Source of the DNA: an uncultured Erysipelotrichaceae bacterium
Lineage (GTDB): Bacteria > Bacillota_I > Bacilli_A > Erysipelotrichales > Erysipelotrichaceae
Direction of reading: 5' to 3'
DNA length: 32,000 bases
NCBI GenBank assembly: GCA_942492995.1
Contig: OW818653.1
Span: 1,140,001-1,172,000, forward strand
The first letter of the stretch is position 1. Each line of letters begins with the position of its first letter. Both the position numbers and the translations under genes were made by a program. A model generated the notes under the pieces. The model saw nothing but the letters and a program-made list of their open reading frames with translations. It did no database searches and was not told the origin of the DNA. Positions 5,683 to 25,834 of the stretch are shown here, piece after piece.

Positions 5683-6300
5683 ATGAAAAGCACACATTTG
5701 GTTGAGTTAAGAAAATATGAATTAGTCGATGATTCGAGTCAAGAAATCATTTTTGGATTGAACCAAGAATGGTACAAATCAAAGTGGCAAAAAATGGCTG
5801 GATGTGGTCCAACCGCAGCGAGTAGTCTAATCTATTATCAATTGTCAAACGATATTACGCTTAATAAAGACTCCGCAATCCAATTAATGGAAGTATTATG
5901 GGAATATGTAACACCTGGAATGGGTGGAGTATATAAACGGTCTATGTTTACAGATGGATTAAAGCGGTATTTTGATAAAAATGAGATACAAGCAAAGATT
6001 GAATCAATCGAAATTACAAAAAATAAAAAGACTCGTATGAGTCTTAAAGATACAATCGATTTTTTAGAAAATGGATTAAGTAATAACTCACCCATCGCAT
6101 TTCTAAATCTAGATAATGGCGATGAAGAGAAACTAGATGAATGGCATTGGGTTGTGATAAGTGGAATTGATATTCATGAGGATCATAATCAAGTATTTAT
6201 AAACATTATCGATGATGGTAAGCTATTTGCGATCGACCTTGATTTATGGTTAAGAACAACTAAAAAAGGTGGCGCATTTGTTTACTTTACTATGATTTAA
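5683..6300 (+). CDS. predicted cytoplasmic papain-fold cysteine peptidase (C39-like domain)
   Basis: Candidate catalytic residues appear in C39-like order: Q-x4-C (WQKMAGCGPTAAS), then His (DEWHWVVISG), then Asp (INIIDDG). There is no signal peptide and no fused transporter. Confidence 0.45.
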   Translation: MKSTHLVELRKYELVDDSSQEIIFGLNQEWYKSKWQKMAGCGPTAASSLIYYQLSNDITLNKDSAIQLMEVLWEYVTPGMGGVYKRSMFTDGLKRYFDKNEIQAKIESIEITKNKKTRMSLKDTIDFLENGLSNNSPIAFLNLDNGDEEKLDEWHWVVISGIDIHEDHNQVFINIIDDGKLFAIDLDLWLRTTKKGGAFVYFTMI

Positions 6301-8158: not shown

Positions 8159-8601
8159 TGTGCGTCTCTTTTACTTCTTAACGTATAGTTTAGTTCAGTC
8201 GTATCATCCTTATCGTTTAGATATATAACTTGAACTCTATCATTAGATAAATTAAAACTTAGATTATTTAGTTTAGCTATTCTTTGACCGGAAGTTTCTA
8301 ATTTATAATCAACTTCTGAAACTTGTTCAACTAAGAAACCATCTTCTTCATAGATTAATGTAAAATACCCATCATGGTTTATTAAAATATAATCTTCATT
8401 GATTATCAACTTATCACTCGTATCAGACTGATTAAATCGATGATTAAAGTACAATAAAATCGTTCTTTGGTTCATTGATATCTCTGATTCAGTCGTCATA
8501 GATTGATAAAAGTTAGCCCCTAAATAGATGGTAAAAACCATGATAAAAACAAACCCACTTAATACAATCCATTGTAAGAATTGATTAGATATTCGTTTCA
8601 T
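8155..8601 (-). CDS. small bitopic protein (148 aa), unknown (pseudopilin- or PilN/O-like topology)
   Basis: MKRISNQFLQWIVLSGFVFIMVFTIYL forms an N-terminal anchor followed by a soluble domain. It has ATGA overlaps with the neighbouring genes at both ends. Confidence 0.55.
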   Translation of the reverse strand: MKRISNQFLQWIVLSGFVFIMVFTIYLGANFYQSMTTESEISMNQRTILLYFNHRFNQSDTSDKLIINEDYILINHDGYFTLIYEEDGFLVEQVSEVDYKLETSGQRIAKLNNLSFNLSNDRVQVIYLNDKDDTTELNYTLRSKRDAQ

Positions 8602-8894
8602 TGGTTTAATCCTTTTCTAAATACAGTCACATCAGGTCTAATATTGGACGCAAAGCTCTTAAAACTTATGTAGTATAGTCTTTCATCTATGATTAATCCG
8701 TAATTATCAATTAGATAATCAATTTTAGCAGGATAGAATCCTTCTTGTGCATAACAAAGATTCAGAGATCGTTGAATCGCTGACTCTACTTGTTCTATTT
8801 GATATTGTGTATTCGTTTGTTGGATTAGATTCGCCAATGGAATACTTAATATCAATAGAGATAGTGTTACACCAATAAAGATTAACTTTTTCAT
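8598..8894 (-). CDS. small bitopic protein (98 aa), unknown
   Basis: MKKLIFIGVTLSLLILSIPL forms an N-terminal hydrophobic helix. Its ATG directly abuts the TAA stop of the GspF-like gene (TAAATG). Confidence 0.55.
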   Translation of the reverse strand: MKKLIFIGVTLSLLILSIPLANLIQQTNTQYQIEQVESAIQRSLNLCYAQEGFYPAKIDYLIDNYGLIIDERLYYISFKSFASNIRPDVTVFRKGLNQ

Positions 8895-10920: not shown

Positions 10921-13900
10921 TTATAATCTAATTAATGTTTCGAATGAATCATCGATACCTTCAGGTATTGTTGCTGAATGAATAACTTTACCATTTAATT
11001 GGAAGTTAACAGTAACGCCACCACAATGTTTCGCTAAACGTTTGAAGAATTCGATTTCGATTGTTTGAACTTCAACTAAGTCTTTATCACTTAATTCCAC
11101 AACCATTGTCTTTTCATCTGGTTTAGCTAAACGTCTACGAACTACTTTCTGATTATTTGCTTTATCTGTTAAGATGTATTTCATATTAGGTCTTAAGAAC
11201 GCTAGTAACCATAATAGTAATCCAGCAAGTAGAGCTAGTAACCACCATAACCAGTCGTTATTCACGGCTGCTAGAGGTGTTTCAGGTTCTACAATAATAA
11301 TTTCTTCTGTTACATCTATTGTGATTTCTCCAATATTTGAATCATCTGTTCCATCATTTGCGATGAAAGTGAAACTATCTGTACCTTCGAATCCATCATT
11401 TGGAGTATATGTAAATGTTCCATCAGGATTGAATACGATTGTGCCATTTGTAGGATCAGTCACTAAACTAAATGTTAATGCGTCTCCATCTGGATCTGTA
11501 CCAGTTGCAGCACCATCGACAGGTTCTTCAAATGGAGTAGATAATGTATCATCTACAACAACTGGAGCACCATTAGGAGCTGGTGGAGGAGGAAGTGTTG
11601 TTACAGTAATTGTTACTGTAGCATTCGAAGTGTGAACACCGTCGAATACTTCAAATAAGAAACTATCACTGGTAGTAGCACCACCATTATGCGTATAACT
11701 AAATGTACCATCTACGTTTACAACTACACTACCGTTTGCTGTACCTGATAATAAACTAAAGCTTAATGGAGCTCCTTCAGGATCACTACCAGTTAATGTT
11801 CCACCCACAGTTCCACCTGTTAATACAGTTAGAGCTTGAGCAAATGCGACTGGAGGAAGATTGACTACTGGAGCCGCCAATACAGTTACAGTAACTGTTG
11901 CGGTAGAAGTTAGTTGACCATCTGTAACACTGAATACGAATGTATCGCTAAGTGTAGCAGAACCGTTATGTGTATACGTATATTCGCCTGTTGGGCTAAC
12001 AGTTGCTGTACCGTTAGTTGCAGGAGTTAATAAACTAAATACTAATGTATCTGCAGGAACATCCAAATCACTAGCAGTAACTAAACCATTACTTGAACCA
12101 GCATTCGGAACGATGAAGGCTAATGGATTTGCAACAGGAGGATCATTTACAGGTGTAACATCTATTACAACTGTAACGACATTCGAGTCTAGTAATCCGT
12201 CAGATACAAGGTAATCAAAGGAATCTAAACCAACATAGTTTTCATTTGGTGTGTAGGTAAACGAACCATCCACATTGAATAATAATGAACCAAATAACGT
12301 ACTTGTTTGAATACTTGGAGTTAATGAATCACCATCAACATCAGAATCATTTATCAAGACACCAGGAGCAGCGATAACTAATGCTGTATCTTCAGGTGTA
12401 TCATAATTGTCACCTACAGCAACTGGAGCATCATTAATTGGGTTAACTGTAATTGTTACAGTAGCGTAAGCTCTTAACTTACCATCACTAACGCCAAACA
12501 TGAAGCTATCTGGACCATGATAATCAGCATCTGGTGTATATGTACGACTTGCGCCAGTACCACTTAATGTTCCATGTAATGGAGCTTCAGTAATACCATA
12601 AATCAACGAATCGCCATCAACATCACTAGCTACAAAGTTAATTAATATTGGAGTATCTTCATCTGTAATAACTTCATCATCTTCAGCTACTGGACGATCA
12701 TTTAACGGAGTAACATCGATTGTGATTGTAGCAGATGCACGATAGAAGCCATCACTTAATGCGAATGTAAAGCTATCAGGACCAGTATAATTCAAGTCCG
12801 GAGTATATGTACGATTTGCACCAGTTCCAGTTAATACACCGTGTGCAGGACCTGTTAAGATACCAAACACTAATGTACTACCTTCAGTATCACTACCTGT
12901 TAAAGTAATAGGAAGTGGTGTTTCTTCTGGAGTTGTCAAATCTTGAGGATCAGCGATAGGACGATCATTAACAGCAGTAACAGTAATTGTTACAACTGCA
13001 GTATCAGTTTTTTCGCCATCACTCACTTCAAATGTAAAGCTATCAGGACCAAAGTAATTTGCGTCTGGAGTATATGTACGGTTTTCACCAGTACCACTTA
13101 ATACACCATGTAATGGACCTGTTTCAATATCGAATGTTAATGTTGTGCCTTCTGGATCACTACCCGTTAATGTAATTGGTAATGGAATATCTTCAGGCGT
13201 ATTTAGAGTTTGAGGATCTGCATCAGGAGCGTCATTGAAATCTAACACTGTAATTGAAACTGTTGCAGGAGCACTAAATGTTACACCACCATCATCACTG
13301 ACTCTGAATGTAAAGCTATCTGAACTTGTTTCACTTCCATCATGTACGTATTCAAATACGCCTAATCCATTTAAATCAATTGTTCCATTTGCTGGAGAAC
13401 CAACTAATTCGAATGTTAATGCATCGCCATCATCATCTTGACCTGTTACTGATCCATTGTATGTTCCACCTTCAAGTACATCGAAAGCTTTTGGATTAGC
13501 GACAGGATTATCTTCTTCTGAAGTAATATTTAATGTGACTAATGCGGTAGCAGTTCCACCATTTCCATCGGTTATACGATAGACAAATGAATCTGTACCA
13601 TGGAAATTAGCATATGGAGTATATGTGAACGAGCCGTCTGGATTTAAAACTAAGACTCCATTAACTGGTTCTGATCCAATTACTAATGAAACACTTAAGC
13701 CATTATTTTCAACATCTGAATCATTAGATTTAACACCAGGTGCTGCAACAACTAATTGAATATCTTCAGTTGTAGTATATTCATCTGGATTTGCGATTGG
13801 TAAATCGTTTATTGGATTTACTGTTACAAATACTGTAGCAATACTTCCACCATTAATTGTATATGTAAACTGATCTGGTCCAAAGTAATCAGCAGTTGGA

Positions 13901-15423
13901 GTGTACTTAATTGTACCATCAAGATTTAAAACTGCTGTTCCATGAGCTGGAGAACCAACTAATGTAACCATTAAAGGACCGCTATCGATATCTGTATCAT
14001 TCGCTATTACATTAATGTCAATTTCAACATCTTCATCAGTAGTAGCAACATCATTTACTGCAACTGGAGCATCATCGATTGGATTAACAGTTACGGTAAC
14101 TGTAGCAACACTTCCACCATTCAATGTATATGTGAATGTGTCAACTCCAACGAAGTTTGCGTTTGGTGTGTACTTGATTGTACCATTAGGGTTTTCAACT
14201 GCTGTTCCATTAGATGGAGAAGTAACACTTGTAACTTCTTTTAAACCTGCATCGATATCTGTATCATTTAATAATACGTCGATATCAATAGCAACTTCTT
14301 CATCAGTTGAAGTAACATCATCTACAGCAACTGGTAAATCATCTAAATTTGCTACATTTATTGTAATTGTTGCATATGCAGAATTTGCATATCCATCATT
14401 TACTCTAAATGTGAATGAATCTGAACCAAAGAAATTTAAATTAGGTGTATACGTCAAATTAGGTAACGTTCCACTTAGCACACCATTTGCTGGTGTACCA
14501 ACATCGACAAAGCTAATAACTTGCGAAACATCCGCATCAGATCCAGTTAAAGTAATTCCAATTGGAACTTCTTCATTTGTATTTAATGTTTGAGGATCCG
14601 CAACTGGAATAGCATTTATTGTATTAACTAAAACAGCTGCACTTGACGTTAATATTGTTCCACCTGATGTTGTACCTGTAGCTGTATTATTTACAGTGAC
14701 AGGATCCATAGATGACTGATCAATATTATGAACATAAGTGTAAATTGCTGGAAGTGTAAATACACGTGGACTTGATAGATCCATTGGATCAGTTACTGTC
14801 AAAGTACCATCTGCATTTATAACATCTGGATTCTTAACATTTATTGCTGGAGTTAAAATACTTAATCCAGTATTTGTAAGATCTGTTTCACCAAATATTT
14901 GAATTGTAATCTTGAATGGTGAAATTGTTTCTAAAACTGCTTCATTGATTGTAAACGATGTTGTATAGGTTTCAGTAATTGTTTGATCCGCAACATCAGT
15001 AAAAGTATCAATAACAGCTTCCGAATAGATTGGACTTCCACTTGGATGAGCAATTAGTGATCTAACACTAAAGTCAGCAGGTGTTGTTCCAGTTAATTCA
15101 TACGTAACTGTGTACGTCAAACTAAATGTAATGTCTGTAGTTTGAGATACATCGACCGTATAAGTTACATTCTCATTTCCATCGACTGCTAAATTAAGTA
15201 CTGGTTTATCAACTGTTTTGATTATACCCCAGTATGTGTTAGCAATAACACTACCCGTAACATCTGGTTTGTTTACACCAACTGCTAATGATGTAGGTGT
15301 TAATACTGTTGGTAAGACACCTCCATCGCCTGGTTTAGCATAAACGTTTAAAAATGGCGTTCGATCGACAAGTAATAGAGCTATTATCAATATTCTCGTC
15401 AATCGGTTGAGTAAGTTCTTCAT
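10921..15423 (-). CDS. giant (1500 aa) surface repeat protein/adhesin: signal peptide, N-terminal beta-rich region, 12 cadherin-like (tandem-95/VCBS-type) repeats, C-terminal TM anchor, cytoplasmic tail
   Basis: A GGGAGG Shine-Dalgarno sequence at 15436-15431 precedes the start. The Sec signal is MKNLLNRLTRILIIALLLV...VYA/KPG. The repeats carry the motifs [AL]PVA.D, D.D.D/DGD and G.F.YTP...F.G.DSF.Y...D. The TM helix is WLWWLLALLAGLLLWLLAFL. There is no LPXTG. Confidence 0.9.
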   Translation of the reverse strand: MKNLLNRLTRILIIALLLVDRTPFLNVYAKPGDGGVLPTVLTPTSLAVGVNKPDVTGSVIANTYWGIIKTVDKPVLNLAVDGNENVTYTVDVSQTTDITFSLTYTVTYELTGTTPADFSVRSLIAHPSGSPIYSEAVIDTFTDVADQTITETYTTSFTINEAVLETISPFKITIQIFGETDLTNTGLSILTPAINVKNPDVINADGTLTVTDPMDLSSPRVFTLPAIYTYVHNIDQSSMDPVTVNNTATGTTSGGTILTSSAAVLVNTINAIPVADPQTLNTNEEVPIGITLTGSDADVSQVISFVDVGTPANGVLSGTLPNLTYTPNLNFFGSDSFTFRVNDGYANSAYATITINVANLDDLPVAVDDVTSTDEEVAIDIDVLLNDTDIDAGLKEVTSVTSPSNGTAVENPNGTIKYTPNANFVGVDTFTYTLNGGSVATVTVTVNPIDDAPVAVNDVATTDEDVEIDINVIANDTDIDSGPLMVTLVGSPAHGTAVLNLDGTIKYTPTADYFGPDQFTYTINGGSIATVFVTVNPINDLPIANPDEYTTTEDIQLVVAAPGVKSNDSDVENNGLSVSLVIGSEPVNGVLVLNPDGSFTYTPYANFHGTDSFVYRITDGNGGTATALVTLNITSEEDNPVANPKAFDVLEGGTYNGSVTGQDDDGDALTFELVGSPANGTIDLNGLGVFEYVHDGSETSSDSFTFRVSDDGGVTFSAPATVSITVLDFNDAPDADPQTLNTPEDIPLPITLTGSDPEGTTLTFDIETGPLHGVLSGTGENRTYTPDANYFGPDSFTFEVSDGEKTDTAVVTITVTAVNDRPIADPQDLTTPEETPLPITLTGSDTEGSTLVFGILTGPAHGVLTGTGANRTYTPDLNYTGPDSFTFALSDGFYRASATITIDVTPLNDRPVAEDDEVITDEDTPILINFVASDVDGDSLIYGITEAPLHGTLSGTGASRTYTPDADYHGPDSFMFGVSDGKLRAYATVTITVNPINDAPVAVGDNYDTPEDTALVIAAPGVLINDSDVDGDSLTPSIQTSTLFGSLLFNVDGSFTYTPNENYVGLDSFDYLVSDGLLDSNVVTVVIDVTPVNDPPVANPLAFIVPNAGSSNGLVTASDLDVPADTLVFSLLTPATNGTATVSPTGEYTYTHNGSATLSDTFVFSVTDGQLTSTATVTVTVLAAPVVNLPPVAFAQALTVLTGGTVGGTLTGSDPEGAPLSFSLLSGTANGSVVVNVDGTFSYTHNGGATTSDSFLFEVFDGVHTSNATVTITVTTLPPPPAPNGAPVVVDDTLSTPFEEPVDGAATGTDPDGDALTFSLVTDPTNGTIVFNPDGTFTYTPNDGFEGTDSFTFIANDGTDDSNIGEITIDVTEEIIIVEPETPLAAVNNDWLWWLLALLAGLLLWLLAFLRPNMKYILTDKANNQKVVRRRLAKPDEKTMVVELSDKDLVEVQTIEIEFFKRLAKHCGGVTVNFQLNGKVIHSATIPEGIDDSFETLIRL
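11308..14610 (-). repeat. 12 tandem coding repeats of 87-98 codons (~260-295 bp period) inside the giant gene
   Basis: In the translation, repeat starts fall at aa 272, 363, 452, 541, 639, 732, 821, 910, 999, 1095, 1189 and 1286, and the array ends near aa 1372. Recurrent DNA strings such as GGACCA(A/G)..TAAT..GC.TCTGGAGTATATGTACG are visible in several units. Confidence 0.85.
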
Positions 15424-15443
15424 ATAATTTCCTCCCTTTTGTT

Positions 15444-15547
15444 AAAAAACCGGTCTAATGCATAGTGCAATTGACCGGTCATGATATCTCGAGGATACTT
15501 TAGACGTCGAACTTTGTGTCCCAAGCTTTCACCTGGTTTACCTTTTT
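15444..15547 (-). promoter_or_regulatory. c-di-GMP-I (GEMM-I)-like riboswitch, copy 1 (gene-proximal), with intrinsic terminator
   Basis: The minus strand reads AGGTAAAC-CAGGT-GAAA-GCTTG-GGACACAAAG-TTCGACGTCTAAAG-...-CATGACCGGTCAATTGCA-cta-TGCATTAGACCGG-TTTTTT. The core is colinear with the Vc2 aptamer core. The terminator U-tract ends 8 nt before the Shine-Dalgarno sequence. Confidence 0.75.
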
Positions 15548-15590
15548 ACTAAGATTAAATTTTTATAAGTCTACGGATGTCCAAGATACG

Positions 15591-15695
15591 AAAAACCGGA
15601 CAACCGCATTAGTTTGCAGTTGACCGGTCATGATATCTTTTGATATTTTAGACGTCGAACTTTGTGCCCTAAACTTTCGTTTAGTTTACCCATAA
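15591..15695 (-). promoter_or_regulatory. c-di-GMP-I (GEMM-I)-like riboswitch, copy 2 (distal), with intrinsic terminator
   Basis: The minus strand reads GGGTAAAC-TAAAC-GAAA-GTTTA-GGGCACAAAG-TTCGACGTCTAAAA-...-CATGACCGGTCAACTGCA-aactaa-TGCGGTTGTCCGG-TTTTT. The unpaired core is the same as in copy 1, and the stems differ from copy 1 by compensatory changes. Confidence 0.75.
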
Positions 15696-15778
15696 AAACA
15701 TATGTAATAATAAATAATGATAAAACAGATTTAATTAATAATTATTATCAATATTATTACCCGTTTTATTGTAAACAT

Positions 15779-15807
15779 ATAATAAACCCACTAAATACGT
15801 CTTGCAA
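15779..15807 (-). promoter_or_regulatory. candidate sigma-A promoter for the riboswitch leader (TTGCAA-17 nt-TATTAT)
   Basis: On the minus strand the -35 is at 15807-15802 and the -10 is at 15784-15779, about 80 nt upstream of riboswitch copy 2. The region is very AT-rich, so chance matches are likely. Confidence 0.3.
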
Positions 15808-15946
15808 CACTAATGCTACTTATAATATCAATTATTTTTTGTGTTATTACATATACCAGTCCGATATGTCATAAAAAGCACTCATTACAGTTTATTATTA
15901 GTATTTTTGTATTAGAATCACTTATATCTCTTATTCTTATATACTC

Positions 15947-15955
15947 ATTATAGCA
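15947..15955 (-). promoter_or_regulatory. alternative candidate extended -10 promoter (TGCTATAAT)
   Basis: On the minus strand, TGCTATAATGA lies right after the upstream operon terminator. The same 11-mer occurs in the same context at 10877-10887. Confidence 0.3.
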
Positions 15956-15992
15956 AATAAAAATCTCTATTAAACACACATAATAGAGATTT
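15956..15992 (-). terminator. intrinsic terminator of the ketone-body operon
   Basis: On the minus strand, AAATCTCTATTA-tgtgtgtt-TAATAGAGATTT is followed by TTATTT. It lies 25 nt after the stop of the permease gene. Confidence 0.7.
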
Positions 15993-16016
15993 TATTAAAT
16001 TTTGATTATTTAAGAA

Positions 16017-17366
16017 TCAATAAATTCCAAGAACTGCAAGAATAATAGCTGGAACAGTAGCGATAATAGGCATAATCAATGAAACTACCATAATATCGAT
16101 ATATGAATCTTTATGAGTCATACCTGTATTATTTAATAGAGTTAGAACAGCACCATTATGTGGTAATGTATCTAGACCTCCAGACGATAGTGAAGCGATA
16201 CGGTGGAATGCTTGAGCTGAGATACCAGAAGTTTTTGAAAGTTCCAAATACTTAGCACCTAAAGCTGCTAATGCAATACCCATACCACCAGAAGCGGATC
16301 CTGTAGCACCAGCTAATAAGTTAACTGCTACAGATAGTGAAATTAGTGGATTACCAGGGATTGATAATAACATATTTGTTAATTCAGCAAATCCTGGAAC
16401 AGCGCGTACAACAGTACCGAAACCAACAGCAGCAGATGTATTTAGAACTGCACCAATAGCACCTTGTGAACCAACTGTTAAGCTTCTTAATAATAGATCT
16501 CTCTTCTTGAAATTGAATAGTGAAACTAGAGCAATTCCTGAAAGTAAAGCATAAACGATGAACTCATTAGTTGAACGACCAGCGGCGATTTGTTCTTCAG
16601 TAAATTTGATGAACATTGGTAATGTGTTAAGAACAGTAATAACAACAACTAGTGGGATAAGAGCAACAAATACATTTGGTAGAACTTCATTTTCTTTGTT
16701 CTTAGCGGCATGAGCTGCATCTGGTTCTGTATAGAATAAACCATTTGTTTCATGTTTTTTACGTTTCCATTCTAAGTAGTATAGACCACCAAAGAATAGA
16801 ACAGCAGTAGCGGTTAGACCCATGATTGGAGCTGCAGTAGCAGTTGTTCCAAAGTAAGGCATAGGAATTAAGTTTTGGATTTGTGGAGTACCTGGAACAG
16901 CTGTCATAGTGAATGTGAATGCACCTAAAGCGATAGCTCCAGGAATAAGTTTACGAGTAATGTTTGCTTCTTTGAAGATTGCTAATGCTAATGGATAGAT
17001 TGCAAATACAACAACGAATAATGAAACACCACCTAAAGTAAGAACTGCACATGAGATAACGATAGAAGCGATAGCGAATTTAGCACCTAACCATTTTGTT
17101 AATACGATAGCGATAGACTTAGCAGCGCCAGTCGTTTCCATCATATTTCCGAAAATAGCAGATAACATAAATGCTGGGAACCAAGTCTTAACGAAGCCAA
17201 CAAGACCTGTCATATATGGACCCATATATGTAGCGATGATATCTAAGCCACCTGTTAAAGCGACGACTGCTGCACATAGTGGAGCAACCCAAACGATTGA
17301 ATAACCCTTTAAAGCTAAATACATTAATAGGCCAAGACCTAAGAATATACCGAATAAACTTAACAT
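16017..17366 (-). CDS. GntP-family permease (predicted 3-hydroxybutyrate/short-chain hydroxy-acid:H+ symporter)
   Basis: The 449-aa polytopic protein has C-terminal blocks GSASGGMGIAL and LPHNGAVLTLL, which parallel the GntP motifs (GSATVA..., SHVNDPGFW). It is the last gene of the bdh/ato operon. The substrate is inferred from context only. Confidence 0.65.
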   Translation of the reverse strand: MLSLFGIFLGLGLLMYLALKGYSIVWVAPLCAAVVALTGGLDIIATYMGPYMTGLVGFVKTWFPAFMLSAIFGNMMETTGAAKSIAIVLTKWLGAKFAIASIVISCAVLTLGGVSLFVVVFAIYPLALAIFKEANITRKLIPGAIALGAFTFTMTAVPGTPQIQNLIPMPYFGTTATAAPIMGLTATAVLFFGGLYYLEWKRKKHETNGLFYTEPDAAHAAKNKENEVLPNVFVALIPLVVVITVLNTLPMFIKFTEEQIAAGRSTNEFIVYALLSGIALVSLFNFKKRDLLLRSLTVGSQGAIGAVLNTSAAVGFGTVVRAVPGFAELTNMLLSIPGNPLISLSVAVNLLAGATGSASGGMGIALAALGAKYLELSKTSGISAQAFHRIASLSSGGLDTLPHNGAVLTLLNNTGMTHKDSYIDIMVVSLIMPIIATVPAIILAVLGIY

Positions 17367-17395: not shown

Positions 17396-18157
17396 CTAAG
17401 CTGCTGTCCAACCTCCATCGATAGTCATTGTTGAGCCAGTGATCATAGATGCTTCATCAGCACATAAGAACTTAACTACATTAGCAACTTCGGAAGGTTG
17501 TAATAATTTCTTAACAGCTGCTTTTTGAAGCATGATCTTAGAAACTACTTCTTCTTCAGAAATTCCATGAGTTGCTGCTTGAGCAGCGATTTGTTTGTCT
17601 ACTAGTGGAGTTTGCACATAAGATGGGCAAATAGAGTTAACAGTGATACCGAATGGTCCACCTTCTAGAGCGGTAGTCTTTGTTAAACCAGCTAAGCCGT
17701 GTTTAGCAGAAACATAAGCGGATTTAAATTCTGAAGCAACTAATCCATGGATAGAGTTTAAGTTAATAACACGTCCCCATTTTTGTGCTTTCATATAAGG
17801 CCATGAATAACGAGTAAGCAAGAATGGAGCAGTTAACATTAAGTTAATCATGAAGTCCCATTTGTCTTCAGGGAAGTCTTCAATTGGTGAAACTGTTTGA
17901 ATACCAGCCACGTTAACAAGAATATCAACTTTTTCAAATAGACGAACTGCAACATCGACTACATTTTTGCAATCTTCGCGTTTGCTTAGATCTGCAACAA
18001 CATATTCAGAACCTAATCTCTCACAATGTGATTTTAGTTGAGCTTCATTAATGTCAACCATTACCACCTTTGCTTGTTCAGCCGCAAACATTTCTGCTAT
18101 AGCTAAACCAATACCACTGGCGGCACCTGTAACGATGCACACTTTGTCTTTTAACAT
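17396..18157 (-). CDS. bdhA: 3-hydroxybutyrate dehydrogenase (short-chain dehydrogenase/reductase)
   Basis: It has the TGAASGIGLAIA Rossmann motif, the catalytic YVSAKHG (YxxxK), and a C-terminal block ICPSYVQTPLVDKQIAAQA...G that closely parallels known BdhA enzymes. The ato/thiolase context supports the call. Confidence 0.8.
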   Translation of the reverse strand: MLKDKVCIVTGAASGIGLAIAEMFAAEQAKVVMVDINEAQLKSHCERLGSEYVVADLSKREDCKNVVDVAVRLFEKVDILVNVAGIQTVSPIEDFPEDKWDFMINLMLTAPFLLTRYSWPYMKAQKWGRVINLNSIHGLVASEFKSAYVSAKHGLAGLTKTTALEGGPFGITVNSICPSYVQTPLVDKQIAAQAATHGISEEEVVSKIMLQKAAVKKLLQPSEVANVVKFLCADEASMITGSTMTIDGGWTAA

Positions 18158-21807: not shown

Positions 21808-22791
21808 ATGGATTACTCACACTTTACTAAAGAAACGCTTATACTACGAATCAAACAGCTTGAAAGATTAAACTTTGAGTTATTAAAGGAAAATGATGAT
21901 GACTTATCGTATGCTTGGACAGGTAGTCTTGGTAAATGGTATCTAGATTTTTCATCTGGATACGCTGTATTTAATGCACAAAAAGTACTCGCATTAGGTT
22001 ACACTATGGACGAAATTCCTCATCCTACACCTTACACTTTTTTCACTTCCTTAATTCATCCAGATGATTATGATAAAACAATGAAAAGCATGTTAGATAA
22101 TATGCACAATATATCCCCAGTTTACGAAATTGAATATCGCATTCGCGGAAAAGATGGAACCTATAAGTGGTTTTATGATCGAGGTCGTGTTACTCAACGT
22201 GATGAAGAAGGACATGCGACATTTGCGGCAGGAATCGTATTTGATATTACTAATAAAAAGGAAGATGAATTACGATTGTTGAAAGAAAGCCAGGACTTCA
22301 AACGAAGTTCATTGACCGATCCTTTAACAAATATTATGAATCGACGCGCTATTTTAGATGAGTTATCCAAACGTATGAATAAACATATTTATAATTTTGA
22401 ACATCTATCCATCTTAATGTTGGATATCGATGATTTTAAATTTATTAACGATCAATATGGTCATATAAAAGGTGATGAAGTACTCGTAAAAGTCACCCAA
22501 ATAATTATTGAAGTAATTCGTGGAATTGATACCGTTGGGCGCTATGGTGGTGAAGAGTTCTTAGTTATATTTCCGAACACTGACTTACAAAACGCACATA
22601 ATGCGAGTGAACGTATTAGGATGAAAATTGAGAATACAGAGTTTGCTGGAATCGGTAAAATCACTGTTAGTGGTGGTTATACTGAGTATATAAATGAGTC
22701 GATTGAAGAATTAATTGATATCGCCGACCAAAACTTATATCAAGCAAAAAGAACTGGTAAAAATAAAGTAATAGGTAATTTTCTTAAGTGA
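21808..22791 (+). CDS. PAS-GGDEF diguanylate cyclase (intact GGEEF active site and RxxD I-site)
   Basis: It has a coiled N-terminus and a PAS/PAC domain (YRIRGKDGTYKWFYDRG....G...AAGIVFDIT). The GGDEF domain reads DPLTNIMNRR...DIDDFKFINDQYGH..GD. The I-site RGID lies 5 residues before GGEEF. There are no TM segments. Confidence 0.9.
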   Translation: MDYSHFTKETLILRIKQLERLNFELLKENDDDLSYAWTGSLGKWYLDFSSGYAVFNAQKVLALGYTMDEIPHPTPYTFFTSLIHPDDYDKTMKSMLDNMHNISPVYEIEYRIRGKDGTYKWFYDRGRVTQRDEEGHATFAAGIVFDITNKKEDELRLLKESQDFKRSSLTDPLTNIMNRRAILDELSKRMNKHIYNFEHLSILMLDIDDFKFINDQYGHIKGDEVLVKVTQIIIEVIRGIDTVGRYGGEEFLVIFPNTDLQNAHNASERIRMKIENTEFAGIGKITVSGGYTEYINESIEELIDIADQNLYQAKRTGKNKVIGNFLK

Positions 22792-25054: not shown

Positions 25055-25834
25055 TTATGGTTGCATTGCTCCAAATAGTACGAGCCACGCTAATATAGAT
25101 TTAGCAGCTAAACTTAAGATAATATAAACTCTTTCACCATATAAATAATCTTTCCATTTGCCAACTTTAAGGTACTGAAGAATCATATTAATTGGGAACG
25201 TATTGAATGCGACGAAATATGAAACAATAATTGCCCAAACAAACCAAGGTACCATATCAAAGTTACCAGTTCCGGTCATGTAAAACAGAATTGCAGCCCA
25301 AGGTGCGATACCAGCAATTGATCCCCAAATAAATGGTAACCAATTAATCTTACCTTTTTCAGCACTAGAATTTAAGAGTTCCATATCCAAACCAAATAGA
25401 TTCATTGATGCATTAACTACGAATATTAACAACAAGGATACAACATCATAGATACCGAATAAAGTCGCAATAAGTACAATCATAATGGATGAACTTAATG
25501 CATACTCATACCAACGATATGGATTAATTCCCTTACGTAAGTTCGCTTCATATTTTTTCGAATTTAACGCAATAAATCCATGTGCTAACGCAGAAATAAA
25601 TAAGAATGATGCGACAAGTAATCCAAACGGTAAATCAAATAATTCTTTACTAACTACTTCAAGAGATCGTGTTTCAACATTGAATTGTTGATAGAATTGA
25701 ATAATTGTTGGTTGAAATTCCGAGATTTTTTGAATTACTGTTGTTGCCAAAAATACCATTGCGACTGCTTGTATAAAATGAATCCCACCCATGATAAGAT
25801 TAAAATTCTTTAATTTTTTAAATACATCCTGCAT
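25055..25834 (-). CDS. heliorhodopsin (7-TM retinal protein, inverted topology family)
   Basis: It is colinear with heliorhodopsin 48C12 as I recall it: NFN.I.G..H..Q (His23 equivalent), SALAHG (His80 equivalent), RWYEYALSSSIMIVLIA (counterion Glu), VNASMNLFG, GIAPW, and GERVYIILSLAAKSILAW with the Schiff-base Lys (K245, codon 25100-25102). Confidence 0.85.
   Translation of the reverse strand: MQDVFKKLKNFNLIMGGIHFIQAVAMVFLATTVIQKISEFQPTIIQFYQQFNVETRSLEVVSKELFDLPFGLLVASFLFISALAHGFIALNSKKYEANLRKGINPYRWYEYALSSSIMIVLIATLFGIYDVVSLLLIFVVNASMNLFGLDMELLNSSAEKGKINWLPFIWGSIAGIAPWAAILFYMTGTGNFDMVPWFVWAIIVSYFVAFNTFPINMILQYLKVGKWKDYLYGERVYIILSLAAKSILAWLVLFGAMQP

Follow-up and report, generated by a model that had tools for sequence, protein, structure and literature searches.

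The minus strand of the window analyzed here, a 32 kb stretch of contig OW818653.1 (positions 1,140,001 to 1,172,000) from an uncultured Erysipelotrichaceae bacterium, encodes a 1500-amino-acid (aa) adhesin, and the leader in front of this gene carries two copies of one RNA element. The locus raises the question of whether the copies are riboswitches for cyclic di-GMP (c-di-GMP), in which direction they would act, and how many of the neighboring genes they would govern. It is very likely that the leader of ∼350 nt comprises two complete, independent class I c-di-GMP ON switches arranged in series.

Aptamers in the adhesin leader

The window was scanned against all 4227 Rfam families by cmscan, and only two matches reached the gathering score. 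Both were to c-di-GMP-I (RF01051, gathering score 35) on the minus strand, and each covered model positions 1–87 of 87.

15700-15612, minus strand: upstream (promoter-proximal) aptamer, RF01051, 63.2 bits, E = 2.5e-10
15552-15463, minus strand: downstream (gene-proximal) aptamer, RF01051, 61.5 bits, E = 6.5e-10

Both elements are full-length members of the c-di-GMP-I (RF01051) family. A preliminary description of this DNA, made from its letters, had proposed two such elements, and the strings that it quoted were found on the minus strand by direct reading. A permissive Rfam scan of 15300–16100 (E ≤ 1) returned no further family, no third copy, and no c-di-GMP-II element (RF01786, the contrast model suggested earlier); a third copy or another RNA family in the leader was ruled out at this threshold.

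The aptamer and its terminator occupy 15700–15591 and recur at 15552–15444 on the same strand, with no open reading frame (ORF) between them, and the two ∼113-nt units are 84% identical to each other. The copies are offset by 148 nt when measured from their 5′ ends (G15691 vs. A15543) and by 146 nt when measured between terminators, owing to loop indels of +1 nt and −3 nt; a constant 147 nt had been given previously. At least two complete aptamers in one 5′ untranslated region (UTR), each with its own expression platform, constitute a “pseudo-cooperative” tandem (PMC9481103), and this is the arrangement found here.

The Rfam alignment showed that in both copies the first hairpin, a 6-bp stem with a GAAA cap, is closed by a 2-bp helix (G-C, U-A), that the junction reads G(A/G)C-AC-AA, and that a second helix of 10 bp carrying the CUAAA receptor bulge is followed by a short third stem, the P3 loop of the downstream copy being pyrimidine-rich (CCUCGA). 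The tetraloop receptor was aligned to the model as CUAA(A/G)...(C/G)AUG, with CUAAA/CAUG in the upstream copy, and the GAAA tetraloop would be expected to dock into it. The resemblance to the Vibrio cholerae Vc2 aptamer (PDB 3IRW; PMC6140456) noted in the preliminary description was borne out, as the GAAA cap, the ACxCAAAG junction, and the receptor bulge all aligned to the RF01051 model in both copies. The elements share with Vc2 the two-hairpin fold, the GAAA tetraloop and its receptor, the residues G20, A47, and C92, and the ACxCAAAG junction. They depart from it in having U-A in place of C-G as the closing pair beside G20, a GGC/GAC junction, a short P1, and a terminator as expression platform. 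The copy-to-copy differences in the P1a hairpin proved to be compensatory, as described earlier, with one C-G to U-A and one G-C to A-U change plus two one-sided wobble changes. The outer P1 can also pair in the window, through UAGU/ACUA in the downstream copy and GUUU/AAAC in the upstream copy, a pairing that was judged by eye and left uncounted.

The residues important for ligand contact are present in both copies. Vc2 G20 (model position 11) is matched by G15690 and G15542, the intercalating A47 (model position 38) by A15663 and A15515, and C92 (model position 83), which pairs with the second guanine, by C15616 and C15467 in the upstream and downstream aptamers, respectively; all three were invariant across 13 related units. 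Model position 11 corresponds to G20 of Vc2 (PMC9262584) and to G11 of the Bacillus thuringiensis riboswitch Bc3, and the C92 equivalent to C245 in Bc4 (PMC4759541). The roles of G20 and C92 in ligand contact have been described, and at position 20 a G marks c-di-GMP sensors whereas an A marks sensors of cyclic GMP-AMP (cGAMP) (PMC6140456). The G at the G20 equivalent therefore points to c-di-GMP rather than cGAMP as the ligand. Both aptamers would be expected to bind c-di-GMP selectively; wild-type Vc2 binds 3′3′-cGAMP at ∼10 µM.

Terminators, switch layout, and conservation

Each copy ends in a hairpin followed by a U-tract, as had been reported in the preliminary description.

15629-15591, minus strand: upstream terminator, found by the terminator scan; hairpin −22.2 kcal/mol, present also in the minimum free energy (MFE) structure of the leader
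15480-15444, minus strand: downstream terminator, folding at −16.7 kcal/mol

The upstream terminator is composed of GACCGG-U-CAACUGCA, the loop AACUAA, and UGCGGUUG-U-CCGGUU, with the U-tract at 15595–15591 (U5), and its 5′ arm includes C15616. The downstream terminator consists of an 8-bp GC-rich base (GACCGGUC/GACCGGUU), a 3×3 internal loop, a UGCA/UGCA top, a CUA loop, and U6 (15449–15444), and it was missed by the simple terminator scan because of the internal loop. Compensatory changes had been claimed for the terminator arms as well. The upstream arms CAACUGCA/UGCGGUUG indeed pair perfectly, but the downstream arms CAAUUGCA/UGCAUUAG contain two mismatches, which produce the 3×3 internal loop.

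The polarity of the switch follows from a strand used twice. In both copies, GACCGGUCAA(U/C)UGC, which contains the C92 equivalent, forms the 3′ side of the second aptamer helix and doubles as the terminator 5′ arm, a sharing that had been recognized before and that the folding analysis upheld. Each terminator 5′ arm is contained over its full 15 nt in the Rfam aptamer match (the 3′ strand of P2 plus the C92 equivalent). For nascent transcripts ending just after the aptamer, the MFE structure was identical to that of the Rfam aptamer (−14.7 and −15.5 kcal/mol), and for the complete units the terminator conformer won (−28.5 and −31.1 kcal/mol), being more stable by 13.8 and 15.6 kcal/mol. The ligand-free MFE structure of the whole leader formed both terminators (z = −5.4 vs. 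shuffles). Since the aptamer 3′ strand is the terminator 5′ arm, ligand binding can only disfavor the terminator, and the layout of each unit predicts a transcriptional ON switch, with two such switches in series. Ligand-dependent read-through with ON polarity would be expected in vivo.

During transcription, each aptamer would fold before its terminator. With c-di-GMP bound through the contacts at G20, A47, and C92, GACCGGUCAA(U/C)UGC would be held in the aptamer and RNA polymerase would pass the U-tract. In the absence of ligand, this strand would be displaced by the freshly synthesized 3′ arm, the terminator would form, and transcription would stop at ∼15591 in the first unit or ∼15444 in the second. 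The polymerase would have to clear both checkpoints, so that basal leak would be multiplied down and the dose–response would be steeper than that of a single switch. The adhesin would then be made only at clearly high c-di-GMP, i.e., upon commitment to a sessile, attached state.

Several known systems resemble this arrangement. A survey of tandem riboswitches listed 347 c-di-GMP-I doublets and 12 triplets, the most of any riboswitch class, and same-class tandems were read as devices for sharper, more digital binary lifestyle decisions (Sherlock et al., 2022, PMC9481103); the doublet in the window is of the same architecture class as these catalogued tandems. A close parallel is Bc3-5 of B. thuringiensis CT-43, where three near-identical ON units with their own terminators lie upstream of cspABCDE, and where two or three units in tandem were induced more strongly, and from a lower background, than units taken singly (Zhou et al., 2016, PMC4759541). 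Both loci are from Bacillota and have head-to-tail, near-identical class I aptamers in one 5′ UTR, each with an intrinsic terminator whose hairpin takes in the ligand-contact C together with the 3′ strand of the helix, which makes them ON units, and both have a surface or adhesion target. The window differs in having two units instead of three, a period of ∼148 nt instead of ∼160 nt, and an uncultured Erysipelotrichaceae host. Its target is a single cadherin-like/Big_9 adhesin with a C-terminal transmembrane anchor, whereas the targets of Bc3-5 are five surface proteins, four of them predicted to have a cell-wall anchoring motif, and the tandem behavior was measured there and is predicted from sequence here. 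The idea of a stricter, more digital response of the doublet agrees with the tandem Bc3-5 experiments (PMC4759541) and with the review (PMC9481103).

The collagen adhesin gene cap/cbpA of the Bacillus cereus group is controlled by a single class I riboswitch, Bc2 (PMC4933901, PMC7423583). The preliminary description had placed a tandem before this gene and had thereby merged two loci, the tandem being that of Bc3-5 before cspABCDE. Bc2 and the window have in common a class I c-di-GMP riboswitch of ON layout acting by transcription termination and a large repetitive adhesin as target; they differ in that Bc2 is single and the window element is a tandem, and in that CbpA, an MSCRAMM, is a collagen-binding surface protein anchored to the cell wall. 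In Paraclostridium, a gene for a surface-anchor protein (COG4932) is preceded by tandem c-di-GMP-II elements (PMC9481103), and c-di-GMP-II ON switches serve adhesins and pilA1 in Clostridioides difficile (PMC6200980). In these Bacillota too, high c-di-GMP turns on adhesin or pilus genes, sometimes via tandems, but the aptamer class there is RF01786, which had no match in 15300–16100 of the window.

The doublet is conserved in relatives. Exact-protein and pattern searches assigned the window to an uncultured Erysipelotrichaceae lineage, the nearest public relative being the metagenome-assembled genome (MAG) SMAG_U955, with a transglutaminase 94% identical to that of the window; searching for the exact transglutaminase sequence returned no record. 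Contigs of the same species, located via the exact short-chain dehydrogenase protein (window 17396–18157), contained the same tandem, with substitutions confined to loops and the U-tract. The doublet was found directly upstream of the orthologous adhesin gene at six loci, given here with the RF01051 scores of their two copies.

L005, window species (SMAG_U955): 64.0 and 61.5 bits
L008, Erysipelotrichaceae UBA8511: 59.0 and 53.1 bits
L009, Erysipelotrichaceae UBA4808: 56.1 and 55.8 bits
L036, metagenome: 63.1 and 62.3 bits
L046, metagenome: 63.1 and 62.4 bits
L047, metagenome: 67.8 and 65.2 bits

At the three metagenome loci, the adhesin ORF was seen downstream of the doublet. Across the six taxa, the upstream copies were orthologous among themselves and so were the downstream copies; hence, the duplication predates the divergence of the lineages and both copies have been maintained. 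Over the 13 units, 99.7% of the cells in the aptamer helices were paired, three pairs changed on both sides (13 cells), and none of 500 shuffles reached the observed covariation score, while slid controls were 25–37% paired. The terminator helix (15 pairs in the 13 units) was 88.7% paired; its GC-rich base never varied, a single pair was compensated (C-G to U-A), and the C/U change in its 5′ arm is also tolerated in the aptamer, where it turns G-C into G-U.

Two further features of the leader were located.

15807-15779, minus strand: candidate leader promoter, −35 TTGCAA (15807-15802), 17-nt spacer, −10 TATTAT (15784-15779)
15431-15436, minus strand: Shine-Dalgarno (SD) sequence GGGAGG, 7 nt before the ATG at 15423-15421, by direct reading

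The candidate promoter was not significant by itself in a consensus scan. All six related leaders have TTGCAA unchanged, and five of them preserve the spacing and TATTAT (the −10 of L008 is TAGACT), with variable flanks. The transcription start site is predicted near 15772, which would leave ∼70 nt to the first aptamer. An extended −10 element, TGCTATAAT, at 15955–15947 on the minus strand directly follows the terminator of the upstream transporter gene (15955–15994, minus strand) and was examined in the same-species contigs.

Weighing the doublet against other explanations

Some observations weigh against two fully working switches in a leader of ∼350 nt. The outer P1 has just 3–4 bp, and its conservation among the upstream copies of the relatives is unclear. 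The internal loop and weak top of the downstream terminator (−16.7 kcal/mol) make its efficiency uncertain, and the upstream U-tract in the window is just U5 followed by C (U6 in most relatives, U5 in L036 and L046, U4 in L047). The relatives differ little in sequence (mean column identity, 82%), with most pairs invariant, and the covariation amounts to a few events. The extended −10 at 15955–15947 is a second candidate promoter, which, if used, would give a leader of ∼520 nt, and the position of the start site near 15772 is itself a prediction.

Of the alternatives, the least improbable is an addition to the two-switch reading. The gene-proximal switch might be dual-acting: in ligand-free transcripts that escape termination, the freed 5′ half of its aptamer (AAAGUUC...CUAAAGUAUCCUC) would pair with the SD, the AUG, and the first codons and so silence translation as a fail-safe. 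Predicted pairing probabilities of the SD were 0.93, 0.63, and 0.99 in three species, and the corresponding duplexes, at −15.4, −14.6, and −17.9 kcal/mol, may be compared with about −8 ± 2.5 kcal/mol for shuffled ribosome-binding sites and with −8.6, −3.5, and −4.4 kcal/mol for the upstream copy. The downstream P3 loops were pyrimidine-rich in six of six taxa (CCUCGA, CUUCACA, CUUCCAA, CUCUGG, CUCUCG) and the upstream loops were not; in L008 and L009, CUAAGGUAUCUUC stands opposite GGAGGAACCUUA with 6 bp, one mismatch, and 5 bp, and the pairing was significant against shuffles in L008, L009, and L047. However, when the region from the SD to the AUG was considered by itself, the fraction of shuffles at or below the observed value was 0.25 in the window, 0.80 in L036, and 0.88 in L046 (not significant), and significance in the window was reached only with the early codons included. 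In addition, the taxa are related, so the loop pattern is perhaps a single inherited event, and the complementarity lies partly within conserved signal-peptide coding sequence and the conserved aptamer core. The fail-safe is, on balance, unlikely, yet worth keeping in view.

The complementary stretches lie at 15490–15514 and 15412–15436 (minus strand) in the window and in the same regions of L008, L009, and L047, and the upstream copy has none.

It is considerably less probable that a single copy is functional and the other is a decaying duplicate without switching. The copies did arise by duplication (84% identity), the downstream terminator is mismatched, and the upstream U-tract is short in this strain; but both copies score ∼62 bits over the full model and retain the G20, A47, and C92 equivalents as well as a hairpin and U-tract, they are separately orthologous in six taxa and have thus both been kept since before the split, and changes within the species are found in loops only. 

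The two remaining alternatives are both highly improbable. Sensing of 3′3′-cGAMP or another cyclic dinucleotide by GEMM-Ib-type aptamers has to be considered, as RF01051 also detects known GEMM-I variants whose specificity is altered (PMC6140456, PMC9481103), and three lower-scoring, overlapping matches of the same clan were dropped from the scan. However, neither the two copies nor any of the 13 related units departs from G at the G20 equivalent, where cGAMP sensors have an A (PMC6140456), a GGDEF cyclase gene is nearby, and no cGAMP synthase was seen in the window; cGAMP specificity was rejected on the ground that this residue is a G everywhere. OFF switches, or elements acting mainly on translation, would have precedents in the GEMM-I OFF switches Bc1 and Cd1 (PMC11218506, PMC9262584), and some relatives show complementarity between the SD/AUG region and the 5′ half of the downstream aptamer, but the terminator 5′ arm is the aptamer's own 3′ strand, which leaves the ligand no effect other than disfavoring the terminator, an alternative anti-terminator is neither needed nor seen, the SD lies outside both hairpins, and the anti-SD signal is inconsistent across taxa. 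The reading of two class I c-di-GMP ON switches in series is retained.

Reach of the switch and the neighboring genes

The genes and signals surrounding the leader are as follows.

10921-15423, minus strand: adhesin gene, 1500 aa; Pfam Big_9, 622 bits in 12 stretches, plus Cadherin_4 and Cadherin_5
10922-10891, minus strand: adhesin terminator, AAGAAGAAGCC-UCCG-GGCUUCUUUUU plus Us (hairpin 10922-10897), right after the stop codon
10879-10887, minus strand: extended −10 TGCTATAAT, by direct reading, which would serve the downstream cluster
10862-6290, minus strand: pilus-like cluster, i.e., transglutaminase-like lipoprotein, PilC-like T2SSF, four small membrane proteins, and PilT-family ATPase
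8598-8894, minus strand: 98-aa protein, the most conserved small protein of this cluster; 130 homologues, no Pfam domain
21808-22791, plus strand: PAS-GGDEF diguanylate cyclase; Pfam GGDEF, 146.6 bits, PAS_3, 62.8 bits; motif RYGGEEF intact

The adhesin begins with an N-terminus resembling a signal peptide, continues with 12 Big_9/cadherin-like repeats, and ends in a C-terminal transmembrane segment, WLWWLLALLAGLLLWLLAFL, and a tail of ∼95 aa. Its terminator comprises 11 pairs and was the one hit of a scan in which 0.2 were expected; it is kept in L008 with a UUCG loop, and a TG-n-TATAAT element was found at the matching place in that locus (terminator and −10 region at L008 9850–9892). The conserved terminator and the extended −10 stand between the adhesin gene and the cluster, and riboswitch control by position therefore covers the adhesin gene only. 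A nine-gene operon under the riboswitch was rejected on the same two elements. The adhesin gene does adjoin a pilus-like cluster, as the preliminary description had it, but the cluster is set apart by the conserved terminator and an extended −10 of its own. From these signals, the adhesin gene is probably monocistronic and the cluster transcribed from its own promoter; read-through from the adhesin unit into the cluster is possible.

The PAS-GGDEF gene lies ∼6 kb from the riboswitches and adjoins a LysR-type regulator gene. A GGDEF domain with an intact GGEEF motif indicates that the organism is able to make c-di-GMP, and this enzyme is a possible local source of the ligand. A heliorhodopsin gene is located at 25055–25834 on the minus strand (Pfam PF18761, 313 bits).

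The module of transglutaminase, PilC, and PilT, to which the 98-aa protein and two or three small membrane proteins also belong, has the PilT-family protein as its sole ATPase and contains no PilB, prepilin peptidase, or canonical pilin. A survey of 31 loci with a transglutaminase homologue (two of which, L006 and L007, end before the leader) showed the module to be syntenic in ∼28 of them (L005–L034), from Erysipelotrichaceae, Oscillospiraceae, Christensenellaceae, and Lachnospiraceae, often directly behind a large, lineage-specific surface protein. No description of it was found in the literature searched. The tandem was present in three Erysipelotrichaceae loci of the 31, one of them from the window's own species (L005). 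In the more distant loci (Holdemania, Oscillospiraceae, Christensenellaceae, and others), GEMM-I was not found, except at one locus of a Faecousia sp. MAG (L017). There, a single c-di-GMP-I element at 5750–5836 (plus strand, 79.2 bits) lies upstream of a 762-aa surface protein with VWA, GBS104-like Ig, and Flg_new domains and an NPKTG sortase-like motif, ∼1.8 kb upstream of the module. GEMM-I control as a general trait of the module was rejected on these counts, i.e., the tandem in 3/31 loci and a single GEMM-I in one. Another single c-di-GMP-I element, whose core sequence is the same, lies on a metagenome contig (L044, 7262–7348, plus strand; 69.2 bits) and precedes an ORF that is genuinely type IV pilin-like (MIKTKLGFTFVEVIIAIAIF...).

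The homologues of the 98-aa protein, where named by their source, are called “hypothetical protein.” The protein has the invariant motif LCYAQEGFYPA..DYL..YG and is without the G/FTLxE prepilin cleavage site. Its AlphaFold model (pLDDT 86.5) shows a 50-residue N-terminal helix and a small sheet, and its best matches were pilins (TcpA, PilA4, and PulG), none of them significant: the best Foldseek match in PDB was PilA4 with a TM-score of 0.43 (E = 3), and the best PDB profile match was TcpA with a non-significant E of 0.33. It is a doubtful idea that the switch gates an adhesin acting as partner to a type IV filament-like machine not described before, made up of the transglutaminase, PilC, the pilin-like 98-aa protein, three further small membrane proteins, and PilT, possibly with the translational fail-safe, by SD sequestration, at the gene-proximal unit. 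If this were true, c-di-GMP would time the supply of adhesin cargo to a constitutively encoded apparatus for deployment or retraction.

The tandem architecture is already known and abundant, and the doublet in the window adds one more example, not a new architecture; as tandem c-di-GMP-I is already the most abundant tandem class, knowledge of riboswitch architecture is unchanged. The six natural variants of this compact doublet may be used for biosensor design or for studying the kinetics of tandem switches. The neighboring, widely conserved transglutaminase/PilC/PilT module offers a modest lead toward an undescribed type IV filament-like module. The literature searched contained no link between Erysipelotrichaceae and c-di-GMP riboswitches. 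For this organism, the analysis provides an annotation in which an uncharacterized 1500-aa cadherin-like adhesin is predicted to be made only at high c-di-GMP via a two-checkpoint RNA switch, and riboswitch-based c-di-GMP control of adhesion would thereby extend to the Erysipelotrichaceae.

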